A stretch of 64,000 bases of DNA from positions 1,240,001 through 1,304,000 of the forward strand of contig CM075988.1 in assembly GCA_038087875.1 (NCBI GenBank), given 5' to 3'. The position numbers and the translations under genes were made by a program. Origin of the DNA: Malacoraja senta. Lineage: Eukaryota. The notes beneath the pieces are model-generated. The model was not told where the DNA came from. It made no database searches and was given only the letters and a program-made list of their open reading frames with translations. Positions 20,651 through 22,144 of this stretch are shown one piece after another; the stretch's first letter is position 1; each line of letters begins with the position of its first letter.

Positions 20651-22113
20651 ATGGTCAATGAACCCAAGAAGAAGAAGGCAGGAGCACCTAATGGAGACAA
20701 GAAGGTGACCAAACGCAAGCCCAGAAGGAAGGAGAGCTACTCTATCTACATCTACAAGGTCCTCAAACAGGTAACAAGGTAACATTGTCTGAAGAAGGGT
20801 TTCGGCCCGAAACGTTACCTATTTCCTTCGCTCCATAGATGCTGCTGCACCCGCTGAGTTTCTCCAGCATTTTTGTGTACCTTCGATTTTCCAGCATCTG
20901 CAGTTCCTTCTTTAACAACAAGGTAACATTTGCCTCCTTGCCATCCCAGGACAGAGGGGTTTAACCTAAGCAAAACAGTGTTGCAGGAACTATGTGGGTC
21001 AGTCAGCATCTGTGGAAGGAATGGGCATGTGATGCTTCAGGTTGGAATCCTTCAGAGATTTGACCTGGATCACTCATAAGTTCATAAGTCATAGGAGCAG
21101 AATTTGGCTATTTGACACATGGAGTCTATGCTGCTGATCAGGGCTGATCTATCTCTCCCTTTTCTGCCTGCTCTGCATAACCCGACAGATCAAGGTTGAG
21201 ACCGTTGTCAGGGCTGGTGTGTGTCACTGCATCTTCTGATGGCTGAGGTTGGAACCAGGGGTCTCCTGGAGTATCAGGGACTTTGAAGGGTGGGGGAGGA
21301 GCCTGGTGGTCTGATGCTGCCCCCACCCATGGGACCATGGGGTGTGGGCTGGTTGTGTCTACCTGGGGAGATATCTGTGGATTGATGGGGTAGGATGAGG
21401 TAGTCTCCCCATGTGGGGAGATGGGTTGGGACATGCCTGAGTGGGGGGTAGGGGAGGGATGTCTGGGCAGAGGGTCACCCCCCTTGGTCCACCCTGACAC
21501 AGCCATCTGGGGTGGTGGGATGATGTGGGGAGGAAATTAGTGTTCTGACCCCCCTCTCTGGCCCCAGATGCATCCTGACACGGGCATTGAGGGCTAGGTG
21601 GTGGGACAGGGAGGGGTGGGAGATGGCATGTCTGGGTGGGTGGGGGGGGCGGGGGGACTGGATGAGGAGTATGTCTGTGATCTGACGGTTCCCCCCCTGC
21701 CCCTTCTGTATCCCAGGTTCACCCAGACAGGGCTCTGGGTGATGGCAGGAGGGGGTGTTTGTCTGTGGTGATGGGATGGCTTTGGGTCGGTGGGAGAAGT
21801 TTGGGTGATGGAATGGTGTGGGGTGGGGGAGGAGACCTGTGCTCTGATGATCCCCCTCCCTCCCCTCTCCCCCCAGGTTCACCCCGACACTGGCATCTCC
21901 AGCAAGGCTATGAGCATCATGAACTCGTTTGTGAACGATGTGTTTGACCGGATAGCAGGAGAGGCATCGCGCCTGGTGCAGTATAACCACCGCTCCACCA
22001 TCACGTCCCGTGAGGTGCAGACGGCTGTGCGCCTGCTGCTGCCCGGGGAGCTGGCCAAACACGCTGTGTCTGAGGGCACCAAAGCGGTCACCAAGTATAC
22101 CAGCGCCAAGTAG
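20651..22113 (+). CDS. H2BK1: Intron-containing histone H2B variant, H2B.K-like, 118 aa; exon 1 20651-20770, exon 2 21877-22113
   Basis: Exon 1 encodes [41 protein letters not shown] phase-0 GT..AG intron follows (gtaaca...ccccag). Exon 2 encodes [79 protein letters not shown]2B identity is unambiguous. H2B.K orthology is inferred from the intron, the short divergent tail and the residues YIYKV, NDVF, QY and REVQ. Confidence 0.9.
20787..20916 (+). mobile_element. Short Penelope-terminal-repeat insertion in the H2B intron
   Basis: TSD AACAAGGTAACATT at 20773-20786 and 20917-20930. The body matches the Penelope 3' terminal repeat. Confidence 0.85.
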
Positions 22114-22138
22114 GGCTGGCACCATGCCCTGCCACCCC

Positions 22139-22144
22139 AATAAA
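22139..22144 (+). terminator. Polyadenylation signal of the H2B variant
   Basis: AATAAA 25 nt after the stop codon, followed by GT-rich sequence. No histone stem-loop is present. Confidence 0.7.

Follow-up and report, generated by a model that had tools for sequence, protein, structure and literature searches.

The window analysed here, a 64-kb stretch of DNA, carries a histone H2B gene that is interrupted by an intron, and this locus raises the question of whether the gene belongs to H2B.K (H2BK1), the only H2B variant known widely across vertebrates (PMC8857922), and, if so, how old that variant is. The origin of H2B.K has been placed in the bony-vertebrate ancestor, ~435 Ma, by authors who stated that their own date is possibly an underestimate (Raman et al., 2022; PMC8857922), and the date given in the earlier note, bony vertebrates, agrees with their statement. 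The elephant shark was the sole cartilaginous fish searched in that study, in which lamprey was searched as well, and neither a shark nor a lamprey H2B.K appears in its Data S3 or Table S1 (PMC8857922). A report of an elasmobranch H2B.K was not found in the literature within our coverage, outside of which most subscription journals lie. Taken jointly, the results described below make it very probable that the gene in the window is the elasmobranch orthologue of H2B.K, giving rise to a spliced and polyadenylated mRNA that is likely stored in the oocyte.

The gene consists of two coding exons on the plus strand that join into an uninterrupted ORF of 118 aa (Table 1) with a GC3 of 0.75. Exon 1, whose start codon has an A at -3 and a G at +4, encodes a short H2B.K-type N-tail (27 aa ahead of the core), followed by helix alpha1 as far as LKQ, while exon 2 encodes the remainder of the histone fold together with an intact alphaC helix and is recognised as a histone by Pfam (PF00125, E 8.6e-14). 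The intron reads CAG/GTAACA at its donor and CCCCCAG/GTT at its acceptor, and is in phase 0, which bears out the interruption described at the outset between LKQ and VHPD; its acceptor obtained the top score of the 67 intronic AGs (8.4 vs 4.8 for the runner-up, on a rough matrix of our own). Upstream of the start codon a motif scan found elements of a putative promoter and, within 500 nt upstream of the gene, no H2B octamer motif. At the 3' end the claim that AATAAA takes the place of a histone stem-loop held, since the hexamer is present, closing at the end coordinate given in the earlier note, the stem-loop consensus has no match on either strand of the window, and Rfam gave zero matches at the gathering score across the 64 kb. 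Polyadenylation of the transcript, which the earlier note had asserted outright, is thus to be read as a prediction from this signal. A second H2B in the window was not detected by tblastn. Hence the traits of canonical replication-coupled H2B genes, namely an intronless structure, a stem-loop 3' end and a location in a histone cluster, are absent from the window gene.

Table 1. Features of the H2B gene in the window (positions count from the first letter of the window)
Feature	Positions	Strand	Details
Putative promoter	20464..20573	+	CCAAT (20464), ATTGG (20518), TATA-like TATTTAAA (20566); motif scan
Coding exon 1	20651..20770	+	40 aa, ATG at 20651, ends LKQ
Intron, phase 0, GT-AG	20771..21876	+	1106 nt; junction LKQ/VHPD
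Short interspersed repeat with flanks	20773..20930	.	repeat body ~20787-20916, 16 nt inside the intron
Decayed tandem duplicates (three) of the acceptor with the opening codons of exon 2	21475..21735	+	at 21487, 21568 and 21717
Coding exon 2	21877..22113	+	78 aa from VHPD, then TAG stop
AATAAA poly(A) signal	22139..22144	+	25 nt past the stop, then a GT-rich stretch

The intron itself contains two kinds of inserted or duplicated material. Its short interspersed repeat is bracketed by a target-site duplication of 14 nt (20773-20786 and 20917-20930), a 14-mer that occurs twice in the window vs 0.00 expected occurrences, and has 14 further matches in the window at 80-95% identity; the insertion is recent. 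Close to the donor, an 8-nt repeat creates another GT donor, which lies 8 nt further downstream and has a score nearly equal to that of the first. The three decayed tandem copies of the acceptor region form decoy acceptors at a distance of 160-390 nt upstream from the true acceptor, with which they agree at 18, 22 and 19 of 29 positions. Two of them keep the AG, and splicing to these would result in a stop or a frameshift. A pattern derived from the three copies found four of its six window matches within ~400 nt, compared with a whole-window expectation of 1.47, a figure that is partly circular as the pattern was built from those same copies.

At the protein level, all four core substitutions quoted in the earlier note (YIYKV, NDVF, LVQY and REVQ) are present, and I34, L38, V62, Q75 and V87 of the window protein are H2B.K residues. 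The V of LVQY (V74), however, is not an H2B.K residue, the corresponding position being A or T in nine of nine bony H2B.K and T in all six other elasmobranch copies; no K row other than that of the window therefore has V74, and I32 is likewise window-specific. Residues S29, I32 and G68 are canonical-like, with T at position 29 in 9/9 bony K, while D64, G68 and H78 are common to the window and the Rhinoraja copies. At position 68 a T is found in 5/6 elasmobranch K and 5/9 bony K and in none of 12 vertebrate canonical rows. As a stand-alone diagnostic of H2B.K the four quoted motifs were ruled out: among 340 fetched proteins that had a single intact core, 81 carried the set I34/L38/V62/V87, and inspection of the 20 of these that were not K by the tail rule yielded 6 K and 14 environmental H2Bs without a name, whose tails are not of K type. 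Core identity is about the same to canonical H2B (89-91%) and to bony H2B.K (89-92%).

The description of the N-terminal tail as short and divergent was confirmed. All 16 K rows have tails of 26-28 residues, vs 32-43 residues for the 12 canonical rows from vertebrates. The canonical PKKGSKK motif is absent from the short window tail. Exon 1 aligned end to end with coelacanth H2B.K (24/40 identical), while only 20 residues aligned with a ray canonical H2B. The net charge is +14 for the window protein and +15 for three other K, vs +18 for four canonical H2Bs; a charge lower than that of canonical H2B has been reported for H2B.K (PMC8857922).

Counterparts of the window protein are widespread in sharks and rays. 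With exon 2 as the query, six elasmobranch clusters (111-119 aa) stood among the best 120 of 7800 matches, together with proteins from birds, amphibians, coelacanth and arowana, several of which bear the name 'histone H2B type 2-K1'. With exon 1, the 4 best of 435 matches came from elasmobranchs; they spanned the exon completely, and no other match was under E 1e-4. Cluster look-ups placed counterparts in 12 named species, comprising Rhinoraja, Pristis, Hemitrygon, two Mobula, Hypanus, Cetorhinus, Carcharodon, Stegostoma, Rhincodon, Heterodontus and Scyliorhinus. The nearest protein, XP_078254094.1 (93% identity over 118 columns), comes from Rhinoraja, which is a skate (10.1101/2025.06.08.657570). 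The NCBI name of the Carcharodon protein XP_041046523.1, 'zgc:92591', is also borne by teleost proteins that cluster with ones named H2B type 2-K1 and would thus be the zebrafish symbol of H2B.K; since the label is common to Carcharodon and teleost H2B.K, automatic annotation appears to have linked them already. Two oddities were met among these records. An 84-aa fragment (P0126, MBS2599716.1) on a 418-bp contig labelled Salmonella enterica matches the Carcharodon protein and spans the LKQ/VHPD junction; this bacterial record likely contains spliced sequence that comes from a shark. Three RefSeq isoforms from Heterodontus and Stegostoma (P0014, P0016 and P0396) have alternative upstream exons joined to exon 2, and their products are tail-less or odd-tailed. 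In a profile search in which 8000 candidates were scored, the 120 best of 7985 matches contained no protein named as from Callorhinchus, lamprey or hagfish. In the 55-row tree described below, the three Callorhinchus clusters from the exon 2 search proved to be canonical-type. Likely, H2B.K has been lost in the elephant shark or is missing from its assembly; chimaeras may have lost it.

An intron within the fold-coding region is common to H2B.K and H2B.N (PMC8857922; PMC9526256). Its position in bird, teleost and shark K was deduced here indirectly, from read-through ORFs and isoforms. Bird-type K exon-2 ORFs (P0001, P0020, P0400, P0401 and P0404) consist of non-histone sequence up to Q/VHPD, at which a partial bird model (P0373) starts, and the teleost-type ORFs P0064 and P0398 show a pyrimidine-tract-like run ahead of the same point. 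A cyprinid exon-1 ORF (P0357) ends LKQ/VRKFS where that of the window ends LKQ/VTR, and shark isoforms and partial models (P0014, P0016, P0394 and P0396) switch or begin exactly at VHPD. The window junction is thus that of bird and teleost H2B.K, as far as these ORFs reveal it. The same intron could nevertheless arise twice, since CAG/GT can serve as a splice site as it stands, and VHPD is also the restart point of some gene models of canonical H2B that are artefacts (P0255 and P0270), so that the position taken by itself falls short of proof of a single origin. An amphioxus H2B model with ETYSVYIYK and a second core from VHPD (P0263, Branchiostoma belcheri KAI8500070.1) gives a weak hint of an intron at this site but was rejected as evidence, because both its tail and its second core are of the canonical type and artefactual canonical fish H2B models restart there too.

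The phylogenetic position of the window protein was consistent across five trees, which were anchored by P0274, P0046 and P0371 (matched by eye to the zebrafish, coelacanth and chicken H2B.K of Data S3 in Raman et al.) and were built without mammalian H2B.K, H2B.N, sea urchin, lamprey or hagfish rows. In the 55-row tree (mixture model; 57 rows minus 8 that were partial, isoforms or mis-modelled, plus 6), 27 K-like rows were split from 28 canonical and invertebrate rows with a support of 98/88 (starred), and the window fell within a 10-row elasmobranch clade (99/98, starred). A balanced tree of 32 rows recovered a K clade of the window, 6 other elasmobranch proteins and 9 bony H2B.K (100/98, starred), in which the window was sister to Rhinoraja (100/94, starred) on a short terminal branch of 0.05, the batoids grouped, and the elasmobranchs grouped around them (96/93, starred). 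The K clade was also found in a core-only tree of 91 columns (98/98, starred) and, after the 32 rows had been extended to 42 by six environmental H2Bs sharing K-like core residues and four more rows, in the full-length tree (100/99, starred), and it dropped to 90/71, unstarred and the weakest support obtained, in the corresponding core-only tree. The window protein therefore groups with H2B.K and not with canonical H2B in each of the five trees. The affiliation with cartilaginous fish that had been suspected for this DNA is also sustained, the closest proteins being batoid and the window protein sister to that of a skate; on the evidence of this one gene, the host is likely a skate. Approximately unbiased (AU) tests were less decisive: an origin from chondrichthyan canonical H2B was disfavoured by a narrow margin, with p 0.045 for full-length sequences and 0.0505 for the core only, and a clade of the elasmobranch copies with all vertebrate canonical H2Bs was not rejected (p 0.086). 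These borderline values, together with the weaker core support, mean that much of the signal lies in the tail.

The surroundings of the gene are made up mostly of LINE, LTR and short repeats. For the neighbour scan with Pfam, 479 ORFs were picked by filtering from 833 of at least 28 aa, and 440 of these 479 were scanned; matches comprised histone, reverse transcriptase, RNase H, integrase and zinc knuckle domains, a GDSL-like stretch, an env fragment and three weak matches below the cut-off. Apart from the H2B gene, no histone domain and no Pfam-recognisable cellular gene was found in these ORFs. ABCF2 lies upstream of human H2BK1 (PMC9526256), and an ABC-transporter domain was not found in the 440 of 479 filtered ORFs, with 20 kb upstream of the gene in view and short exons possibly filtered out. 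A separate exon scan of the window, which returned 0 and 2 candidates, used criteria too strict to inform. Among other observations, a non-repetitive, CpG-rich stretch at 37331-37396 on the minus strand (ATG, 22 codons, then G/GTGAGT) may be the first coding exon of a convergent gene; it had no match in 1.84 billion representatives or the PDB, and in the Atlas only unnamed clusters below 0.9. An assembly gap of 200 N is located at 36331-36530. A decayed retroviral envelope fragment (8867-9004, minus strand; Pfam TLV_coat, E 9e-07) has stops around it, an LTR-retrotransposon at 43691-46639 on the minus strand is broken into pieces that include a zinc knuckle, reverse transcriptase, RNase H and integrase, and a long tandem repeat at 60649-61837 has repeated-unit open frames on both strands.

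Several other readings of these data have to be considered. That the gene is a canonical replication-coupled H2B, or one of the H2B.N type, could be argued from a core about as similar to canonical H2B as to bony H2B.K and from the H2B.N intron, which sits where that of H2B.K does (PMC8857922). The intron of the window gene and the lack of an octamer motif in the 500 nt upstream, together with a 64-kb window in which no stem-loop and, among the scanned ORFs, no other histone gene was found, speak against a canonical gene, and H2B.N is mammal-only, less than 50% identical to canonical H2B and mostly devoid of the alphaC helix (PMC8857922) that is intact here; gene structure and trees already refute this reading, to which we assign practically no weight. 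A convergent origin would mean that elasmobranchs derived a replication-independent H2B of their own from a canonical copy that gained the CAG/GT intron and a short tail. Such a history would be in keeping with the occurrence of the four quoted core residues in non-K H2Bs and in sea urchin H2Bs (Data S3), with the borderline AU tests, with the absence of a Callorhinchus-named H2B.K-like protein from the best 120 of 7985 matches and the canonical type of its three clusters, and with the lack of ABCF2 in view of the window. Nonetheless, we consider convergence extremely improbable given that the tail aligns with coelacanth H2B.K over its entire length, that its length class and T68 are distributed as described above in K and canonical rows, and that the K clade was recovered in every tree.

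If the gene is H2B.K by descent, the expressed parental locus might still lie elsewhere, and this copy would then be a duplicate that was relocated or is silent, in surroundings rich in repeats. The neighbourhood of transposon remnants, in which no other Pfam-recognisable cellular gene was seen among the scanned ORFs, the SINE insertion and decoy acceptors within the intron, and the residues I32, V74 and G68, in which the protein is unlike all or most other K copies, would fit such a duplicate. A retrocopy, on the other hand, is ruled out by the retained intron, and the intact ORF with canonical splice sites, strong start context, TATA-like element, AATAAA and a GC3 of 0.75, the short end branch, and D64, G68 and H78 in common with the Rhinoraja copy make a silent or relocated copy, in our view, a very unlikely explanation.

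Transcription of such a two-exon gene is predicted to yield a spliced, polyadenylated mRNA. Canonical histone genes are under S-phase, stem-loop-dependent control, from which splicing and polyadenylation would release the window gene, making its expression replication-independent as judged from its structure. Judged by orthology, the product is likely expressed in the oocyte and early embryo and stored for the chromatin of early cleavage, and its shorter, less basic tail would, on the same grounds, give rise to looser nucleosomes and chromatin. Expression of H2B.K in oocytes and early embryos has been described for human, dog, opossum and chicken (PMC8857922), and the protein itself has not been experimentally determined according to the nomenclature paper (PMC9526256).

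The trees, the intron junction and the counterparts in 12 sharks and rays support the proposal of the earlier note that H2B.K dates back to the jawed-vertebrate ancestor; likely, the gene was present in that ancestor, earlier than published. The three outcomes by which the earlier note would have been refuted (grouping with another H2B class, a different intron position, a host that is not chondrichthyan) were all contradicted by the data above, the intron position indirectly. The published origin would thereby move one node, to at least the jawed-vertebrate ancestor, and the earlier miss may be explained by the choice of the elephant shark, the one cartilaginous fish searched, which seems to be without H2B.K. 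The effect is modest, because an older age was anticipated by the authors and the orthologues are already in RefSeq under other names. Since mice lost H2B.K, egg-laying skates, catsharks and zebrafish become usable for the maternal-histone question. A still older history is conceivable: in the unrooted full-length trees of 32 and 42 rows the K clade does not branch inside the vertebrate canonical H2Bs, which allows a pre-vertebrate origin without demonstrating it. That H2B.K is an old maternal, intron-bearing lineage which parted from canonical H2B ahead of the vertebrates, possibly continuous with the cleavage-stage H2B of sea urchins, and lost in chimaeras, is in our estimate doubtful. If true, sharks, rays and bony fish retained the lineage, and its loss in chimaeras parallels the loss in rodents. 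The cleavage-stage histone genes of sea urchins are reported by Mandl et al. (1997) to contain introns. The sea urchin H2Bs in the analysis of Raman et al. grouped weakly with H2B.K, and the intron was absent from them (PMC8857922).

Compared with known systems, the window protein resembles the late and cleavage-stage H2Bs of sea urchins in YIYKVL, NDVF and REVQ but has a different tail (Data S3, PMC8857922). The mammal-only H2B.N (H2BN1) carries its intron at the H2B.K place (PMC8857922; PMC9526256) and, unlike the window protein, is highly diverged with a truncated alphaC. A polyglutamine tract, which is a feature of mammalian H2B.K (Data S3, PMC8857922), is absent from the window tail, as it is from the zebrafish, coelacanth and chicken H2B.K of the same data set, and is thus not defining outside mammals. 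The elasmobranch RefSeq copies from Rhinoraja (XP_078254094.1), Pristis (XP_051878548.1), Carcharodon (XP_041046523.1), Heterodontus (XP_067886864.1) and others have an MVNEP-type start as in the window, and their shark isoforms have the same exon junction; their labels vary, among them 'H2B-like', 'late histone H2B.L4', 'sperm-like' or 'gonadal-like', with 'H2B type 2-K1' on none of those seen. From the H2B.K of bony vertebrates the window protein differs by S29 in place of T, by the skate-type D64, G68 and H78, and by its own I32 and V74. Like the window gene, however, the bony-vertebrate genes (zebrafish NP_001002724.1, coelacanth XP_006007163.1 and chicken XP_423715.4) have two exons, the Q/VHPD junction as deduced from read-through ORFs, and a poly(A) signal; the encoded proteins, 117-119 aa long, have a tail that is short and rich in lysine, the residues I34/L38/V62/Q75/V87 and a lower net charge.
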